64,000 nucleotides of DNA from a virus. The stretch spans positions 32,001 to 96,000 of the IMG/VR virus record IMGVR_UViG_3300028909_000018. The stretch is one strand, 5' to 3'. Shown here piece after piece: positions 31,414-59,485 of this stretch. Within the stretch, counting starts at the first letter, position 1, and each line of letters starts with the position of its first letter. Below the pieces are notes generated by a model, which made no database searches, was not told the DNA's origin, and worked only from the letters and a program-made list of their open reading frames with translations. Both the position numbers and the translations under genes were made by a program.

Positions 31414-32746
31414 TTATAAATCTTTCCTTCTCTTCCTTAGTGTTGGACATGGTATTCTGGTCTGTCGCGCCGAGATTGAACAACTGCATCTTGGCCTTGT
31501 TAATCCCGACGAGAAACTTCTTATAGGTGTTCACGTCGTTATATCTATTTTTAATTTGAACGAACTGCATCTGACGATCCCGCTCTAGCTCTTCTGACGA
31601 CATGAGAGCCCAGATATGATCCGCCGTCATGGCGGTGCCAAAACTTTCAGAAACATCTTCCATGCCGGGATCAGACGAGGTATAACCCGATCTATTAAAT
31701 TGAGTCGCGGTGATAATCGGCACCGAGAATTCAACCGATAGACCACGTATTTCTTCACCCACCACCTTGACATATTCATAAATGCTGCCACCACCCATCT
31801 TCATGGTGGAGGAAAGACAGATATTCAGATAATCAATATAGATGATGTCGGGAACGAAATTCTTCTTTAATTTCAATTCCTTGATAACGGCCCGAAAGTT
31901 GGCCGAGCCAGCCTGTCGGGTAGGATATTCCTTGACGACTAGCCGTCCTGTCGTCTTGGCCTTCAATCTATTGATACTATTAACGAAATGTTCCTTTGGA
32001 AGCATTAGAAGTTGATCAACGTCCAAGTCCAGAATGTTCTCGTCAATACGCTGGGAAATCATCTCTTCAGACATTTCCAAGGTGATATAAAGGACGTTCT
32101 TTCCCTGAAGAAGATTATTGGCGGCGAAGGCACACATGACGAAGGATTTACCGACACCGGGACCGGCCATCAGGATCGTCAACGTCTTCTGAGACACGCC
32201 CCCCTTGGTGATCTTATTTAAGATATCGATATCAAAAGAAATCTTGTTCTGAATCTGGTGATAATATTCAAAACGAGACTCGGCATCATCAAGATAATCA
32301 TGCCCAATACTGTTGTCGAAAGTGATGGCACAGGCCTGCGACATGATGTCTGGAATAGCGCCACGATCAAGCTTACCATCCTTGTCGTCGCAAATCTGAA
32401 TAGACTTCAGGAGGGCTAGGTAGATGGCCCTGTTCTTGGCGAATTTCTCCGTCTCATTGAAGAGCCAATCAACGCTTGTGGCCGGATCAATCTCCAGTTC
32501 ATCCACAATTTTCTTGCACTCTTCAAATTGTGTGTCATTGACCTTATCCTTGTTGGAAAGATCGATCCATGCTGCTTCTTTTGAAGGTAGTGTGTTATAT
32601 TTCGCGATGTAGCTACCAATAACGTCAAAGACGATCCTATCATGAGCATCCTCGAAATATTCCGGCTTGATATATGGAAGTACCTTCCTCGTGTACTGTT
32701 CATTGAACATGAGGTTGGATAAGATGATCCTATCGAAATTGATGAT
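31364..32746 (-). CDS. gp41: Replicative DNA helicase
   Basis: AGPGVGKS, TLEMSE, KEYPT, DYLNI, TATQ.NR and SESFG motifs. The conserved N-terminus extends upstream of ATG 32710. Confidence 0.96.
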   Translation of the reverse strand: MINFDRIILSNLMFNEQYTRKVLPYIKPEYFEDAHDRIVFDVIGSYIAKYNTLPSKEAAWIDLSNKDKVNDTQFEECKKIVDELEIDPATSVDWLFNETEKFAKNRAIYLALLKSIQICDDKDGKLDRGAIPDIMSQACAITFDNSIGHDYLDDAESRFEYYHQIQNKISFDIDILNKITKGGVSQKTLTILMAGPGVGKSFVMCAFAANNLLQGKNVLYITLEMSEEMISQRIDENILDLDVDQLLMLPKEHFVNSINRLKAKTTGRLVVKEYPTRQAGSANFRAVIKELKLKKNFVPDIIYIDYLNICLSSTMKMGGGSIYEYVKVVGEEIRGLSVEFSVPIITATQFNRSGYTSSDPGMEDVSESFGTAMTADHIWALMSSEELERDRQMQFVQIKNRYNDVNTYKKFLVGINKAKMQLFNLGATDQNTMSNTKEEKERFINDTSKKLDKSAFKDFF

Positions 32747-43951: not shown

Positions 43952-44001
43952 AGTACAATCTCCTAATTTTAATTATTTATTATAAGGAGATGTCAAAAAA
44001 A

Positions 44002-44027
44002 AATGGCCCGAGTTTCCTCGGGCCATT
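44002..44027 (-). terminator. Rho-independent terminator
   Basis: aatggcccgag/ctcgggccatt stem followed by a long T run on the minus strand. Confidence 0.85.
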
Positions 44028-47805: not shown

Positions 47806-48405
47806 ATGTATAAGTTTGAGCAACTTGCGAAAACGGCCAAGCTGAAAGGCTTCGACCTGAAGAAGGATGCGGAGGAAGCGCGGGAGTGGTTCCGACAGAA
47901 GGCCTATGGCACGAAGTATGTCAATCCAAAAGACTTTCAAAAAAATGCCACCGCCTTCCAGAATATCGAACAAATCAGCCCAAATTCTATCGGGAAACTG
48001 TACTTCTTCGCCTATGATCCAAAGCATAAGCTGACGCTAGAATACTATGACGTATTTCCACTTATCTTTCCAATTGAATTTTATAGTGATGGATTTCTCG
48101 GCATCAACCTCCATTACCTTCCTCCTTTCATGAGAGCGAAGTTGATGGATGCTCTTTATAAGACCATGAATAATGACAAGTATGATAAGACTTCCAAGCT
48201 GGTCATCACCTACCAGATTCTCAAGGCGGCGGGTCAGTTTAAATTATTCAAACCTTGTGTTCATCGATATCTCTTCGCCCACATCAGAAGTCCCTTCCAA
48301 TATGTTCCACCCACGGCTTGGGACTACGCCATCCTGTTGCCATTAAATAGATTTAAAAAGAAGTCTGCCGAGTATGTGTGGGCTGCTAGTTTATTAAAAA
48401 CTTAA
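47806..48405 (+). CDS. gp2: DNA end protector
   Basis: GKLYFF.YDPKHK..L.YYD.FPL, GINLHYLP and PC..RYL motifs. Confidence 0.95.
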   Translation: MYKFEQLAKTAKLKGFDLKKDAEEAREWFRQKAYGTKYVNPKDFQKNATAFQNIEQISPNSIGKLYFFAYDPKHKLTLEYYDVFPLIFPIEFYSDGFLGINLHYLPPFMRAKLMDALYKTMNNDKYDKTSKLVITYQILKAAGQFKLFKPCVHRYLFAHIRSPFQYVPPTAWDYAILLPLNRFKKKSAEYVWAASLLKT

Positions 48406-48414
48406 GGGAACGAT

Positions 48415-49035
48415 ATGGCATTTAATATCAACGATTTCATAACAAATATACAGCAGTACGGGGTATCCAGTAGCTCTAAATTTAATGTGAATATCACCCT
48501 ACCAAACATATTCAGTAATGCCAAGAATGGTGTCATTCTACAGTCGGAGTTGCCCCAACTTCTGGCTTTCAGAGCCGAGAGTGTGAATCTCCCCGTCGCC
48601 GCGCTTCTTTCGAACGAAACGGCGCGTTATGGCCTTGGACCATCGGTGAAGACGCCATATAACGCCGTCTTTGGCGACATCAAGATAACCTTCATCGCGG
48701 ATAAGAGTGGCACTATTTACACATTCTTTTATTCATGGATTAATTCGATTTATAACTTTTCTGAGACCAGCACCACATCAGGAACCTCGACGGGCGGCAG
48801 CACCACCAGCATCACGCTTCCTAGATATACGACGATGTATGACGACGATATTGTCGCACCTAATATCAGTATAAATATATATGACAACCTCGGAAACATC
48901 ATCCAGACGGTCTTCGTGACAAGAGCGAAGCCCATCATGTTCTCGGCGTCACCCCTAATATGGGAACAGACCAACAACTTATTTAAAATAACTGTAGGAT
49001 TCACCTTCAAAGAGTGGTCTTTGGCGGTTTCATAA
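48415..49035 (+). CDS. gp54: Baseplate tail tube initiator gp54 (gp19-like fold)
   Basis: ESV.LP, PY...F.DI..TF..D, F..W and V.FTF..W motifs. Confidence 0.8.
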   Translation: MAFNINDFITNIQQYGVSSSSKFNVNITLPNIFSNAKNGVILQSELPQLLAFRAESVNLPVAALLSNETARYGLGPSVKTPYNAVFGDIKITFIADKSGTIYTFFYSWINSIYNFSETSTTSGTSTGGSTTSITLPRYTTMYDDDIVAPNISINIYDNLGNIIQTVFVTRAKPIMFSASPLIWEQTNNLFKITVGFTFKEWSLAVS

Positions 49036-49044
49036 GGAAATGAA

Positions 49045-49749
49045 ATGATACCTAAAATTGTATATCCAATATTTTTTATTGACCAGCCTTCTACTAAAAA
49101 GAAACTAGCCTTCCGCCGATACCTCGTCAAGGAGGAAAAGATTCTCCTTCTCGCCAAGGAGAGTAAGGACATCAACGATATTCTCAGGGCTATCAAGGAC
49201 GTGGTGAATGTATGCTGTCAGGAAGAAGACTTCAACGTCAACGAGATTCCACTCTTCGATCTGGAATTTATATTTCTAAGGCTTCGCGCCGCCTCGGTCA
49301 ACAATATGGAAAATTTCGTAGTCAAAGATGTTGAAGATGGAAAGGAATATCCTCTTTCAATTAATTTTAATGATGTTGAGGTTCAATTCGATGAAAACGC
49401 CCCCGACAAGAATATCAAGGTGGACGATAAGACGGTTATGGTGATGCAATATCCGATGGCCTCGATCTACGACAACAAAGACTTCAAGGAACGTCTGGCA
49501 GCGGAAGGCCTGTTCGAATTAGTTGTAAATTGTGTTGATAAGGTGTTCAGTAACGACGAATATATCGAGATGTCACACTTGGAACTGCGGGATTTTATTG
49601 ACAGCCTCGACGTAAAGACCTTTCATAAAATTAAGGACTTCCTACTATCAACGCCATCAATTCGCCACTCTCTGAAATATATAAACAGTAATGGCAACGA
49701 AAAAATTCTGACCTTTAACTCACTTATGGATTTTTTTTTGTATCTCTAA
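49045..49749 (+). CDS. gp26: Baseplate hub assembly protein gp26
   Basis: PST...FR.YLVKEEKILL.A, FDLEFIFL.LRA.SV; ends L.DFF. Confidence 0.92.
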   Translation: MIPKIVYPIFFIDQPSTKKKLAFRRYLVKEEKILLLAKESKDINDILRAIKDVVNVCCQEEDFNVNEIPLFDLEFIFLRLRAASVNNMENFVVKDVEDGKEYPLSINFNDVEVQFDENAPDKNIKVDDKTVMVMQYPMASIYDNKDFKERLAAEGLFELVVNCVDKVFSNDEYIEMSHLELRDFIDSLDVKTFHKIKDFLLSTPSIRHSLKYINSNGNEKILTFNSLMDFFLYL

Positions 49750-49925
49750 TCCATAATACTCTAAGCGCGTATTATTCGACAAACTTTGCCCTGCGGCACC
49801 ATCACGGTTATTCTCTGGAAGAAATTGAAAATGAAATACCATTTGAAAGGACTTTAACCCTTCAAATGGTTTCCAAGACTATTCAACAGGCTGATGAAGC
49901 AAATAGACTCAATCAGTCTATGTAA
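49731..49925 (+). CDS. gp51: Baseplate hub assembly catalyst gp51 (no start codon; -1 frame of gp26)
   Basis: HNTLSAYYSTNFALRHHHGYSLEEIENEIPFER signature; absent from the ORF track. Confidence 0.85.
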   Translation, partial: FFFVSLIHNTLSAYYSTNFALRHHHGYSLEEIENEIPFERTLTLQMVSKTIQQADEANRLNQSM

Positions 49926-50120
49926 TCACTTCTTCTTGGTGAGAATCTTCTTGATCCAAGAAGTCTTGTCTCCACCTTCACGCTCCTGACCCGTCTTGTC
50001 GTCTGGTCTTATCGAGGCATGAATTGCGTTTGACTTCTTTTCGGGCTTCTTGTCGTTGCCAATATCCTTATCTGATTCGTGGATACTGGCGTGGATACAA
50101 TTTTTTGTATTGTCTGACAT
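49926..50120 (-). CDS. Small hydrophilic protein with duplicated IHASI motif
   Basis: GGAG RBS; internal repeat. Confidence 0.55.
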   Translation of the reverse strand: MSDNTKNCIHASIHESDKDIGNDKKPEKKSNAIHASIRPDDKTGQEREGGDKTSWIKKILTKKK

Positions 50121-50781: not shown

Positions 50782-53700
50782 TTACTGTGGACCGTGGCCT
50801 ATACCACCGTAATTTGTGAACAGTTTTTTAATTCGTTCATCGGGTGGAGACACAGGACCGGCCTCATGCTTCTCCTTTTTGATATCCTTGGCACCATCTT
50901 TATCATGAGATTTTAGTTCTGTAAAGAGTTTTTGCATGGCGTCTTGAGGTTTCTCATTAGGTTTAGAGGCATCCTTGTTGATAGCCGTCTGATTAATCTG
51001 GGCTGCGTAGTTTATAAGGTCTGGCTTTTGAATCAATGAATCTAGGTCGGTGTCTTCTGACTTGTAGAAGTTAGAATCCATCAATTTACTTCCATCATAA
51101 CCGGCGTCACTTCGACCTTTCATGTTGTCCATTCTACTTCCATCATAACCGGCGTCTTTACGACCTCGCATGTTGTCCAGACTTCCATCATAAAAGGCGT
51201 CATCACGGCCTTTCATGTTGTCCATAGAATTAGGTCTTCCTCTTCCCAGCATCTTAGGATCGATTAACTTATGTTGCCATCTCTCGGCATTGGCCTTTAT
51301 TTCAATAGCTTCTTTTTCGTCATCGTCTCTTGGCTGAAGACCACCCGCTCTATTCTTCATTTCCATAATTCTGTTATTATCAAACATAGAATCATTACGA
51401 CCCATCATGCCTGCATCACTATCCCGAGAATTGAAACCGCCTAATCTTCCATGCATGTTAAAACGAGGATCATGATTTTCTTTCCATCTATTGGCATTGG
51501 CCTTTATTTCGGCAGCTTCTCTCTGATCGTCTGTTGGTTGAATACCCATACGGCCCATCATGCCTGCATCACCGGCCATAGGATTGGAACCACCAAATCT
51601 TCCATGCATGTCAGCATGAAGATCATGACCACGATTTCTCATCTGACCAAATCGTTTGTCGCCATCAAATCCTGAGTCGTCACGGCCCATCATGCCGTTG
51701 ACACCATCAGTATGTTGTTCAAGAACTTTACCTACAGAGTAGGCAATATTTTGAGCGGCAGCAACGATGGAAGGATGTGAAGCTTCGGCAGGAGTTTGAT
51801 CATAATGCTCAGGGTGTTCCTGTCGATATAATGGATTTTGATTTCCATTTAATGGATTACCCTGACTATCTCTTATTGGAGAATAATTCTTGCCTGCGGA
51901 TTCACCAAAACCATCCCTAGGAAGCCAATGAAGTCTTTCGTTTACTCCCATTTTTTCTCTTATATTATGAAATTGTTCAACAATACCCATTTCTCTTGCA
52001 CCTGTAGCAGGATTAATTCTATATCCCGCAATAGTTCCTGCATGGTCTAAATGAGCATGGCGTGTCCCCCCTCCCCCACCAGCATATTTGTCGGATTCCG
52101 ACCCATCTCTATTTAAATGTGTGGAAACAGGTGTTCCAATAGGCAAATCCTTATCGAAGGCATTTTCACCTTTTTTAAATGTCCATTGATGAACATTTGA
52201 TCCGTCTTGGCCCGACCCTTTTCTGACGCCAACACTTGCCATCGCCAAAGAAACACACTCATCATCCGTTATTAATCCTTTATCACGCATGGCCTTTACG
52301 TGGTCTAAGACCTGATCCGATGTCTTTAAATCGTTCACCCCACCACCAGAACCGCCACCAGATTCGTTTCCAATACTTCCCCCGCCCTTAAATCCGGGAG
52401 TACCCATACCCTGATCATAGTAATCTTGGGCTCTCTGCATATGTTTTTCAAATGCAGGAACACCGGGACCACCTTCTCTCATTCCTTCAAAATGTGTTTC
52501 CCAAGAATGTGCCGAACCTCTGGCGGTAGATTCATTCTTTATATGAGGAATTACATGTTTATACGTTGTTTCTAATTCATGATCCATAAATCCTTCATTG
52601 GCTTCATAACTGGAAGGATTTAACTTATGTTCCTTTGACCATTCAAGAAATGCAGTTCTACGTGGTCCTGTCCACTGTGCGTATCCATATCCCGATCCAG
52701 TTCCAGAATGACCAATTTCTTGTAGAGTTTTAAAATTACCACTTTCATAACCCATCACACCAACGGGACCAGTCGCCTGTTCTCTGGTCAGACCATATTT
52801 TTCCATCAGATGCTTTGTGAGTTTATCACCAATAGCGGCACCAGCACCACCAATATGACCACCACCACCAGAACCGCCGCCCGAACCTTGTGTTATTGTG
52901 TGATCACCACCACCAGAACCGCCGCCCGAACCTTGTGTTATTGTGTGATCACCACCAAGCTTTCTTCCAAGAATATCAGCCGCGCCTTGGTTTCTCTGAG
53001 CATCGACGGTCTGGCCGAATGTTGGTTGTGTTTGATCAGGAGACACAGAATCGACGCCTCCACCGACAGGAAGGGCTACTTGGCCGGTACTTCTCGTGGC
53101 GGCAATCTGCTGTTGTGGTGTCTGTATAATATCACCACTCTGAAGCGCCTTGATCTGGCTTTCCTTCTGGGCCTTGTCCTTACTCAGATCATCAATTTCT
53201 TTTTGAATCTCTTCCTTACGTTTATCGACGGCAGGATTATGCTTTCCGCTCTTGTCCATCTCATCAAGCTTCTGAACAATCTTCATGAGTGCTTCACGCT
53301 GTATTGCAAGATTAGAGTCGTCTTCCTTCACACCGGCCTGTAATTTCTGCGACTGAAGACTATTATAATAATCCTTTAGGTCTTTTGGACTGTCATTTTC
53401 ATGACCTCCACTCAAAGGAGTATGATTTTCTCCTTTGTTTCCCCAATTAAGAGCAGCAGCCAAACCTCCGCCTATCAGACCAGCAGCCAAACCTCCGCCC
53501 ATCAGACCTTCACTCAAAAATCCCTTAAGACTTCCTAGAAGTTTACTTCCCCATTGAACGGCCTTGATTTCCATCCCATCCTTGGCAAGGTCTCCAAAAC
53601 CCCCGCCGCCACCTGAACCTCCACCGCCACCGCCACCGCCAGAACCTCCACCACCCAAAACTAATCTTTCAAGCAGAGAGTTAGTTTTTCTGTTTTCGGT

Positions 53701-54012
53701 CAGCATGGAGTCAAGAAGAACACCATGGGTCACATTATGCTGATTTATTTGTTCAAAACCAAGTTCAAGCGTATTCACAACGTCTTCGTCGTCTGTACTA
53801 TTACTACTTTTCTTCCTACGTTCCTGACGAACTTCATCCTTCAGTTCTTTGATTTCTTCGTCGGCCTTCTTCTTGTAGCTAGAAACCAAATCTTGCAGCG
53901 CCATGATCTGTGGAAACGCCGCATGTGTGAGATATCTGGCGCTATCGGCCAATAAAGTTCTGAAGGTACTTTCTGCTGCTTGTTCTTGTTCTTGTTCTTG
54001 TTCTTGTGCCAT
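50782..54012 (-). CDS. Large virion (tape-measure/hub-like) protein with lysozyme and amidase-like domains
   Basis: Coiled coils, Gly-rich linkers, tail-lysozyme motif ESG...GYGYAQWTG.RR, ECVSL...HAG and C-terminal repeats; late promoter. Confidence 0.75.
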   Translation of the reverse strand: MAQEQEQEQEQAAESTFRTLLADSARYLTHAAFPQIMALQDLVSSYKKKADEEIKELKDEVRQERRKKSSNSTDDEDVVNTLELGFEQINQHNVTHGVLLDSMLTENRKTNSLLERLVLGGGGSGGGGGGGGSGGGGGFGDLAKDGMEIKAVQWGSKLLGSLKGFLSEGLMGGGLAAGLIGGGLAAALNWGNKGENHTPLSGGHENDSPKDLKDYYNSLQSQKLQAGVKEDDSNLAIQREALMKIVQKLDEMDKSGKHNPAVDKRKEEIQKEIDDLSKDKAQKESQIKALQSGDIIQTPQQQIAATRSTGQVALPVGGGVDSVSPDQTQPTFGQTVDAQRNQGAADILGRKLGGDHTITQGSGGGSGGGDHTITQGSGGGSGGGGHIGGAGAAIGDKLTKHLMEKYGLTREQATGPVGVMGYESGNFKTLQEIGHSGTGSGYGYAQWTGPRRTAFLEWSKEHKLNPSSYEANEGFMDHELETTYKHVIPHIKNESTARGSAHSWETHFEGMREGGPGVPAFEKHMQRAQDYYDQGMGTPGFKGGGSIGNESGGGSGGGVNDLKTSDQVLDHVKAMRDKGLITDDECVSLAMASVGVRKGSGQDGSNVHQWTFKKGENAFDKDLPIGTPVSTHLNRDGSESDKYAGGGGGTRHAHLDHAGTIAGYRINPATGAREMGIVEQFHNIREKMGVNERLHWLPRDGFGESAGKNYSPIRDSQGNPLNGNQNPLYRQEHPEHYDQTPAEASHPSIVAAAQNIAYSVGKVLEQHTDGVNGMMGRDDSGFDGDKRFGQMRNRGHDLHADMHGRFGGSNPMAGDAGMMGRMGIQPTDDQREAAEIKANANRWKENHDPRFNMHGRLGGFNSRDSDAGMMGRNDSMFDNNRIMEMKNRAGGLQPRDDDEKEAIEIKANAERWQHKLIDPKMLGRGRPNSMDNMKGRDDAFYDGSLDNMRGRKDAGYDGSRMDNMKGRSDAGYDGSKLMDSNFYKSEDTDLDSLIQKPDLINYAAQINQTAINKDASKPNEKPQDAMQKLFTELKSHDKDGAKDIKKEKHEAGPVSPPDERIKKLFTNYGGIGHGPQ
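51080..51225 (-). repeat. Degenerate tandem repeat encoding DNM.GR.DA.YDGS x3
   Basis: Visible in both DNA and protein. Confidence 0.8.
52861..52950 (-). repeat. Perfect 45-bp tandem duplication (DHTITQGSGGGSGGG)
   Basis: Two identical units. Confidence 0.9.
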
Positions 54013-58453: not shown

Positions 58454-58702
58454 TCAGGCCGACTTGACGGCGACATTCACATTTTGAAAATTGTGGTAGA
58501 CGACCTTGTTATCGAGCATCCCTGTCGTCCAAGCCTTCTGGCTTTCCCAGACGGTATAAAGAAATCCATCCTCGGAATTCAGGTTGATGGCGATGTCGCA
58601 AGCATCGATAAAATCCTTGAAGGTTCCTACCAATTCTTGGTTAGCGCCGCCAATCACGATATAATTCATTGCACAAATCTCCAATTTTTTTTTCGCAGCC
58701 AC
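58454..58702 (-). CDS. Hypothetical protein
   Basis: ORF downstream of a sigma70-like promoter. Confidence 0.5.
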   Translation of the reverse strand: MAAKKKLEICAMNYIVIGGANQELVGTFKDFIDACDIAINLNSEDGFLYTVWESQKAWTTGMLDNKVVYHNFQNVNVAVKSA

Positions 58703-59324: not shown

Positions 59325-59459
59325 AAGTCACGCTGAGGAAGAGACTATCTCTTCGGCGTCTTGTGTATGCCAGCATGTATATAAGATGTCAAGAAATTTT
59401 TTGTAAAGATAAGATTTTTATTGACAGGAACCTTTTGGACACATCAGAGTTGACAAAAA

Positions 59460-59485
59460 AAAATCCCCGATTTCTCGGGGATTTT
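59460..59485 (-). terminator. Rho-independent terminator
   Basis: aaaatccccga/tcggggatttt stem followed by a T run. Confidence 0.85.

Follow-up and report, generated by a model that had tools for sequence, protein, structure and literature searches.

Comparative evidence for a conserved -1 recoding in the gp26/gp51 gene of T4-like phages, with a putatively derived, structure-free U9 variant in a peat virus

In phage T4, gp26 and gp51 are chaperones of baseplate hub assembly, and gp51 is described as essential, of unknown function and not present in the particle (excerpted text of Leiman et al., 2010; PMC3004832). The gp51 of cyanophages and marine vibriophages reaches only about 20% of the T4 length and is without the first ~200 residues of T4 gp51, a difference left unexplained in the excerpt of Sullivan et al. 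(2010; PMC3037559). Among long-tailed phages in general, the G-T frameshift is conserved 'except T4', in the excerpted wording of Atkins et al. (2016). The stretch of viral DNA analysed here (hereafter the window) comprises 64,000 nucleotides (nt), positions 32,001 to 96,000 of IMG/VR virus record IMGVR_UViG_3300028909_000018, itself 107,554 bp long and 62% complete according to CheckV, and carries a gp26-family gene whose last codons run through nine consecutive T. Our analyses support the view that this gene and its relatives in T4-like phages share a conserved, apparently unpublished -1 recoding, of which the window would represent a derived U9 variant free of RNA structure. We consider it likely that a single hub-assembly chaperone gene of the gp26/gp51 family has two modes of decoding, with a long form of 293 amino acids (aa) arising from a -1 slip on the T9 run. 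A search of the full-text literature, by which subscription journals are largely uncovered, found no report of a gp26/gp51 frameshift.

Other recoding signals provide points of reference. The slip site of lambda G/GT is G_GGA_AAG, and the -1 cassette of Escherichia coli dnaX combines a slippery heptamer with an upstream Shine-Dalgarno-like element and a downstream hairpin. Transcriptional slippage occurs on A9/T9 runs in Thermus dnaX and Shigella mxiE, nine bases being the classical run length for slippage by RNA polymerase. Relatives of the window resemble the E. coli cassette in having a heptamer, a downstream stem and a GAGG ~10 nt upstream, and the window itself resembles the Thermus and Shigella systems in its nine-base homopolymer, which is of the kind used for polymerase slippage. 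Unlike the dnaX and mxiE systems, the locus belongs to another gene family, and the predicted shift lengthens the product.

The T9 junction and its two predicted products

From 49726 to 49749 the window reads ATG GAT TTT TTT TTG TAT CTC TAA in the frame of the gp26-family gene (the 0 frame), and the nine T occupy 49731-49739, exactly as an earlier note made from the letters alone (the sequence-only reading) had reported. The features on which the argument rests are these, each with its basis in brackets:

49045-49749, plus strand: gp26-family baseplate hub assembly gene, 0-frame short form of 234 aa, stop TAA at 49747-49749 (list of open reading frames (ORFs), PF12322, phrog_150)
49716-49718, plus strand: TAA closing the -1 frame, five codons upstream of the T run (sequence, three-frame translation)
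49731-49739, plus strand: T9 run, the putative slip site (sequence; homologous heptamer in relatives; independent assemblies)
49737-49925, plus strand: -1-frame extension, 62 codons after the predicted slip, stop TAA at 49923-49925 (translation, profile matches)

Within the T9 run lie two overlapping slippery heptamers in the 0 frame, T_TTT_TTT (49731-49737) and T_TTT_TTG (49734-49740); in the -1 frame the run is read as TTT TTT TTT, three Phe codons. After the TAA at 49716-49718, the -1 frame translates as L T Y G F F F V S L I H N T L S A Y Y S T N F ... and is open to 49923-49925, so that the stops of the 0-frame and -1-frame products are both TAA. There is no ATG, GTG or TTG in the -1 frame between the TAA and the conserved core, and because of this the -1 ORF is closed to ordinary initiation; the sequence-only reading had seen both the closed frame and the missing start correctly. 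The codons that overlap the gp26 stop in the -1 frame are CTA ATC.

Standard decoding of the gene would yield the 234-aa short form, which resembles T4 gp26 and ends three residues past Phe-Phe. In a fraction of events, a slip back by one base on U9 would add 62 further codons of the -1 frame, giving a predicted long form of 231 + 62 = 293 aa with a gp51-type tail; in T4, each of the two forms has its own gene, the pair being paralogous and divergently transcribed. The occurrence of the shift, its efficiency, the machine that slips and a chaperone role of both forms in assembly, like that ascribed to T4 gp26 and gp51, are what we infer here from sequence; the anatomy, homologies and conservation on which this draws were observed directly.

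The 0-frame product is a member of the gp26/gp51 family by its match to PF12322 over the full length of the profile (E = 7e-43, positions 9-218 of 219); it also matches phrog_150 (5.1e-44, profile positions 7-233 of 282) and is 23% identical to T4 gp26 (E = 6e-7). The ~60-aa -1 peptide matches phrog_634, the 'gp51' family annotated as baseplate hub assembly catalyst (1.7e-17, positions 60-113), as well as positions 240-280 of the 282-position gp26 profile phrog_150. A gp51-type C-terminal tail after the gp26-like domain is present, in the -1 frame only. T4 gp51 (249 aa) covers positions 13-280 of the 282 in phrog_150 (2.6e-84), with the phrog_634 match at its residues 147-246, and T4 gp26 (208 aa) covers positions 14-235 only. 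By these profile matches, T4 gp26 and gp51 are paralogues, gp51 being composed of a gp26-like domain and a C-terminal tail. The sequence-only reading had described an intact gp51 in the -1 frame, and this has to be corrected: what lies there corresponds only to the C-terminal tail of ~45-60 aa of T4 gp51, the rest of which is a paralogue of gp26.

A profile built from the extensions of relatives, compared with the two T4 proteins, matches T4 gp51 at residues 200-246 (E = 8e-8), in a gapless alignment that begins at the residue matching FF. T4 gp26, like the 0-frame product of the window, ends with FF and three further residues. Because gp51 is a gp26-like domain plus tail, and because T4 gp26 ends three residues after FF, the short and long products mirror the two genes of T4: the short product would be the counterpart of T4 gp26, and the shifted 293-aa product, with which gp51 is collinear, that of T4 gp51.

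Despite this shared family and architecture, T4 differs from the locus in having two diverged genes. These are divergently transcribed in the T4 record, which is the second correction to the sequence-only reading: T4 meets the same need with a gene for each form, and a gp26-gp51 fusion is impossible there. Gene 26 of T4 keeps FF but encodes the site as GAG TTC TTT, without the heptamer. PF12322 is present in two copies in T4 but in one copy in each of the nine complete genomes of the heptamer design (9/9); the window's own 62%-complete record has one copy as well. An in-frame long form was found in none of the best 120 gp26 homologues (156-257 aa, with up to 410 aa allowed), and a search for longer proteins bearing the extension gave none at E 0.001 or better, which with 14 candidates is weak evidence. 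As a side observation, the T4 record annotates 26' (95 aa), a product of gene 26 with an internal start (L085, 3803-4090), which gives T4 one more, C-terminal form of gp26.

Conservation of the junction in T4-like phages

Comparison of the locus with the phage collection by blastn gave no match, and relatives were found at the protein level only. The gp26-like protein hit 544-579 phage records by tblastn, mostly T4-like cyanophages at ~35% identity, and the extension hit 478. Junctions were taken from two IMG/VR scans, one metagenome scan and 12 annotated isolate records. Repeats of the same 93-nt stretch and loci cut 61 nt or less past the heptamer (at least L048) were dropped, and L084, L085, L092-L098 and L105 (the virus's own genome, T4, re-fetched copies and a junction-less fragment) were omitted, leaving 133 distinct junctions.

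All 133 carry T_TTT_TTN in the gp26 frame (as did 84/84 in the first set), in the form of TTTTTTC in 88, TTTTTTT in 43 and TTTTTTA in 2. A complete -1 ORF of 55-76 aa opens at the heptamer in 132 of them, the remaining one leaving its locus, and the aromatic/hydrophobic pair of the tail motif lies exactly 13 codons past the start of the heptamer in 133/133. The sequence-only reading had proposed to look across T4-like phages for a conserved slippery heptamer with a -1 overlap, and both are there. A +1 shift does not fit, the extension being in the -1 frame at every junction.

The design is found in isolates of the Kyanoviridae (S-PM2, P-SSM7, S-MbCM6, S-MbCM7, Melnitz, C48C1 and Ochrobactrum phage OC), in Sinorhizobium phage phiN3, and in Vibrio phage VH7D and Aeromonas phage 65.2 of the Straboviridae. 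None of the 12 isolate records annotates a slippage join; 'gp51' is given as 57, 53, 47, 46, 34 or 31 aa, and is unannotated in six of the 12. In the T8 phages Melnitz and C48C1 (L087 and L088, 2489-2498), the gp26 stop directly follows the heptamer, as T_TTT_TTT_TAA, and the stop codon itself may act there as the pause signal.

Selection on the nucleotides of the heptamer was assessed at synonymous sites, by comparing 85 distinct junctions with the rest of the same genes. The codon before FF ends in T in 85/85, whatever the residue: Asp, Ser (from two codon boxes), Asn, Ala and Gly all occur, as GAT, AGT, TCT, AAT, GCT and GGT, and the shares of T-ending codons elsewhere in these genes are 0.33-0.79. 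The first Phe codon is TTT in 85/85, compared with 0.70 of the Phe codons elsewhere, and the free Z position of the heptamer is taken by C (50), T (33) or A (2). Conservation of the FF pair alone was considered as an explanation of the T run and ruled out, as the third base of the preceding codon and the first TTT are also fixed and T4 encodes its FF as TTC TTT. In the relatives, then, a 0-frame heptamer is fixed at synonymous sites, as expected of a programmed -1 site.

The reading frame under constraint changes at the same place. In the entropy profile of the junctions, the three-base periodicity moves from the 0 frame to the -1 frame at the heptamer. A T is found at +10 in 83/85 and at +16 in 85/85, in each case as the middle base of a -1 codon; read in the 0 frame, these bases fall in a stop codon in one clade, and the other clade has sense codons there. 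The fixed heptamer, the switch in periodicity, the constant spacing, the lack of any start codon in 49/133 junctions, the collinearity with gp51 and the single gene copy together lend strong support to the proposal, first made from the letters of the window, that gp26 and a gp26-gp51 fusion would be produced by -1 slippage.

RNA structure and the route to the long form

Most relatives (T6 or T7) have the layout of a classical -1 ribosomal cassette, U_UUU_UUY followed by a stem or hairpin that begins ~5-10 nt downstream, often joined in the cyanophage group by a GAGG ~10 nt upstream. The 30 sequences of the T7 group share a 9-bp stem that begins 7 nt past the heptamer and encloses ~38 nt (columns 15-23/62-70). 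This stem has 93.1% of its cells paired, compared with 22-40% for slid partners; five of its nine pairs are changed on both sides, its covariation score was reached by 0/500 shuffles, and RNAalifold predicts the identical stem. When 65 nt from +7 were folded in a sliding analysis, the mean minimum free energy (MFE) was -16.7 kcal/mol for T7 (n = 29) and -14.6 kcal/mol for TTTTTTC (n = 51), L048 being too short for this fold; segments inside gp26 average about -9.0 kcal/mol, the position means having a standard deviation of ~1.1-1.2. The TTTTTTC group has at least three hairpin registers, on account of which a single hairpin common to the whole group was rejected (the one tested formed in 60.8% of cells). 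On the 5' side, the Glu codon at 14 nt takes the form GAG in 41/48, against a share of 0.32 elsewhere, which gives GAGG ~10 nt before the P-site codon. A search of Rfam returned just two sub-threshold chance matches (E = 0.3 and 0.68), far below the gathering score.

Like these structures, their lack in the window is a direct observation: a stimulatory structure ~5-9 nt 3' of the heptamer is found in the T6 and T7 relatives but not in the window. For the +7 fold, the median z by run length is -1.41 for T6 (n = 90), -2.16 for T7 (n = 34), -0.44 for T8 (n = 6) and +1.68 for T9 (n = 3), and the +7 fold of L004, a relative with a T9 run, reaches -0.4 kcal/mol. In a tree of the gp26-like domain, for which 26 rows were hand-picked from more than 130, the pair formed by the window and L004 has L005 as its sister (support 93/84) and is nested in the clade with T7 and stem; the long stemless run is therefore derived. 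In the window's lineage, the stem would have been lost and the run grown to nine U, leaving a slippage independent of structure. The slip in the window would be ribosomal, in tandem on U_UUU_UUU or U_UUU_UUG; slippage of RNA polymerase from U9 to U10 may contribute, perhaps even in large part, and the ribosomal and transcriptional routes would yield essentially one long protein.

T4 gp26 and gp51 take no firm place in this tree, being on end branches of 3.5 and 5.1 where long branches meet, so that it would fit a duplication replacing the frameshift as well as the reverse. One scenario, which we offer with considerable doubt, is that the one-gene -1 slip is ancestral in the T4 superfamily and the 26/51 duplication came later, the peat lineage having swapped the ribosomal cassette for polymerase slippage on U9. 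If true, recoding at one and the same codon of a gene would have changed in nature from the translational to the transcriptional kind.

A number of observations weigh against a programmed -1 slip at this gene, or temper the evidence for it. The support is comparative, and the sole RNA run touching the stretch covers 48400-48586, short of the junction. The junction sequences share phylogeny, so that their counts inflate independence. The hairpin test for TTTTTTC (50 sequences) gave a moderate result, in which the double-change pairs were equalled by 281/500 shuffles. In the window, the +7 fold has an MFE of -8.8 (z = +0.13), 105/200 shuffles and 70% of the segments upstream being as stable, and the GAGG motif is absent. 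Because there is neither significant structure nor GAGG, the window lacks what usually stimulates efficient ribosomal frameshifting. The T9 run taken alone is at chance level, with four runs of the T9 class observed in the window and 3.2 expected; what lies far beyond chance is the conservation of the run and its context in relatives, not the T9 by itself. Start codons also belong here. An ATG, GTG or TTG precedes the motif in 84/133 junctions, at inconsistent positions, and many cyanophages have an ATG at extension codon 5. When the extension profile was compared with 1.84 billion representatives, 1988 proteins matched at E 0.001 or better; the best 150 of these range from 46 to 203 aa, with starts scattered over the profile, and about 35 of the 150 open with a -1-frame ATG that lies 9-20 codons (mostly 14) upstream, so that independent initiation is possible in those lineages. 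Four of the same 150 (P0121, P0127, P0131 and P0169) have gp26-derived sequence in the same ORF; their junctions are garbled or altered, for which sequencing errors or rare in-frame variation may account.

These points bear on three alternatives to a ribosomal slip. The long form could be made here mainly by transcriptional slippage, RNA polymerase adding a U (U10) and ribosomes reading on unshifted. The window does have a conserved coding A/T run of the length class (about nine or more) at which bacterial RNA polymerases slip, and this T9 is kept in relatives at 100% (L102), 93-95% (L103 and L104) and 69% (L004) protein identity. The downstream structure of relatives with 6-7 T is, moreover, missing from the T9 lineage. 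The 0-frame C-termini of two relatives known from protein only (P0015 and P0016, ~53% identity) read DFFFFL, which hints at runs longer still; if every Phe were TTT, such an end would need a T-rich run of 12-13 bases, perhaps a longer slip run. The distinct junctions of this kind are few, however (three T9 and six T8, from few lineages), tandem slippage of ribosomes is likewise highly favoured by U9, and descent from a ribosomal cassette makes retained ribosomal slippage the simpler reading. We regard polymerase slippage as the main source of the long form as unlikely, though well worth keeping in mind. Alternatively, there might be no recoding, and the ~60-aa 'gp51' would be translated alone, through re-initiation after the gp26 stop or from a non-canonical start, which is what the present annotation of relatives takes for granted. 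Separate small gp51 coding sequences in six of the 12 annotated relatives would fit this, as would the start codons and upstream -1-frame ATGs just described. The window, with no start from the TAA to the core and CTA ATC over the gp26 stop, does not fit, and neither do the 49/133 junctions that have no ATG, GTG or TTG between heptamer and motif. The expectation that relatives would lack a gp51 start thus held for these 49 and failed for the other 84, in which the start positions are variable. Residues 2-5 of the extension are conserved and lie upstream of the commonest ATG, the residues between an upstream ATG and FF are unconserved in the ORFs called from it, and in one cyanophage subgroup the candidate ATG falls inside the hairpin stem. 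A tail translated alone would also leave aside the fixation of the heptamer at synonymous sites and its absence from T4 gene 26, and the T4 tail is always joined to a gp26-like domain. This alternative appears improbable to us.

An artefact or decay has also to be considered, either as a homopolymer assembly error (a true T10, and thus a simple fusion) or as a dead remnant of a gp51 tail; the record is, after all, a metagenome assembly of incomplete length, and homopolymers are error-prone. The run length was one of the checks proposed in the sequence-only reading, and contigs from three other runs (two from peat and one of a freshwater strain that differs by 18 substitutions over 2193 nt) span the T9 without an indel, in agreement with the T9 of L102-L104 and L004. 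The T9 is real and no assembly slip. The same frame relation recurs at 133/133 junctions, finished isolate genomes included, the extension shows conservation at the protein level and the periodicity of the -1 frame, and an in-frame fusion is lacking among the best 120 homologues, all of which makes error or decay scarcely credible. Decoding of a single gp26/gp51-family gene in two ways, by a -1 slip on the T9, is the reading we prefer over these alternatives.

Two side observations may be added here. The phage is almost complete in 17 DNA runs from peat metagenomes, with a variant strain in one freshwater run. In lineages whose gp26 has a Cys-x-x-Cys-Gly motif in its C-terminus (L099, which is VH7D, and P0122-P0145), the -1 frame contains an ATG TGG 14 codons ahead of the heptamer, and gene callers take this ATG as the start of a 'gp51' of 78-82 aa; from the reading of the codons, the ATG TGG is probably a by-product of Cys-Gly in the gp26 frame.

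Parallels with lambda G/GT and the surrounding genes

The sequence-only reading had further suggested that 26/51 are the T4-clade counterpart of lambda G/T. Several likenesses uphold the analogy: a short and a C-terminally extended product, with a predicted -1 shift near the end of the first ORF; a need for the products in tail or baseplate assembly and their absence from the particle (for T4 gp51, as given in the excerpted literature); and the position of the gene directly after one of the tube family:

48415-49035, plus strand: tail-tube-family gene, the upstream neighbour of the gp26-family gene (phrog_45, 1.3e-25)

The same order of tube-like gene and gp26 is seen in phiN3, Melnitz, C48C1 and S-PM2, in the last of which the ORF upstream of gp26 matches phrog_45 at 2e-37. 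In phiN3, the order continues as tube-like gene, gp26, extension, a protein of 139 aa and one of 568 aa with weak tape-measure matches (3.5e-5). Unlike the lambda pair, the window's gene is not placed between tube and tape measure, as the genes downstream are on the opposite strand and have no tape-measure match, and its slip site is a U run rather than the lambda heptamer. Pairs of the lambda type are further characterised by a short form that binds the tape measure, an added domain that binds the tube protein, and the absence of both forms from virions. A link by sequence to the tail-assembly chaperones was not found: no Pfam family of tail-assembly chaperones came up even at E 10. A profile search of the PDB gave no solved structural relative (best E = 0.41), and there is no ESM Atlas model. 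The tie to G/GT is thus an analogy, in that the gp26/gp51 gene may work like the lambda pair, and we would not say that it is one.

Should the proposed shift be true, the puzzle of the short gp51 raised in 2010 (excerpt in PMC3037559) would be solved, gp26 supplying the missing part through the shift. It would also fill the 'except T4' exception, as worded in the excerpt cited above, to the rule that long-tailed phages have a short and a frameshift-extended assembly factor. Annotation would have to be corrected in hundreds of phage genomes in which gp51 is truncated, arbitrarily started or missing. The sequence from T6 with hairpin, through T7 with long-range stem and T8 with adjacent stop, to T9 with no structure provides a natural series for the evolution of recoding signals. 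The short-to-long ratio and the role of the tail could be manipulated genetically in cultured relatives, which would give a handle on the function of gp51.

A gp2-like DNA end protector is also encoded upstream of the gp26-family gene. On the downstream side, a protein of ~1076 aa (50782-54012, minus strand) contains long stretches rich in Gly and repeated ones rich in Met-Gly-Arg; it had no PHROG match at E 0.001, and it occupies the place of the large tail or hub proteins of relatives, but on the opposite strand. Within the -1 extension lies a 13-bp inverted repeat (49838-49870), which on the minus strand is followed by a T-rich tail and has a terminator-like score; it may serve to end the convergent minus-strand genes that finish at 49926. 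At ~100 nt from the slip site, the repeat is too distant for a usual frameshift stimulator. The other three nine-base A/T runs of the window are at 43995-44003, 58685-58693 and 59455-59463. Two of these lie outside any open frame of at least 80 aa, one of the two being located between an AAGGAG and an ATG, and the third is inside open frames of just 111 and 99 aa.

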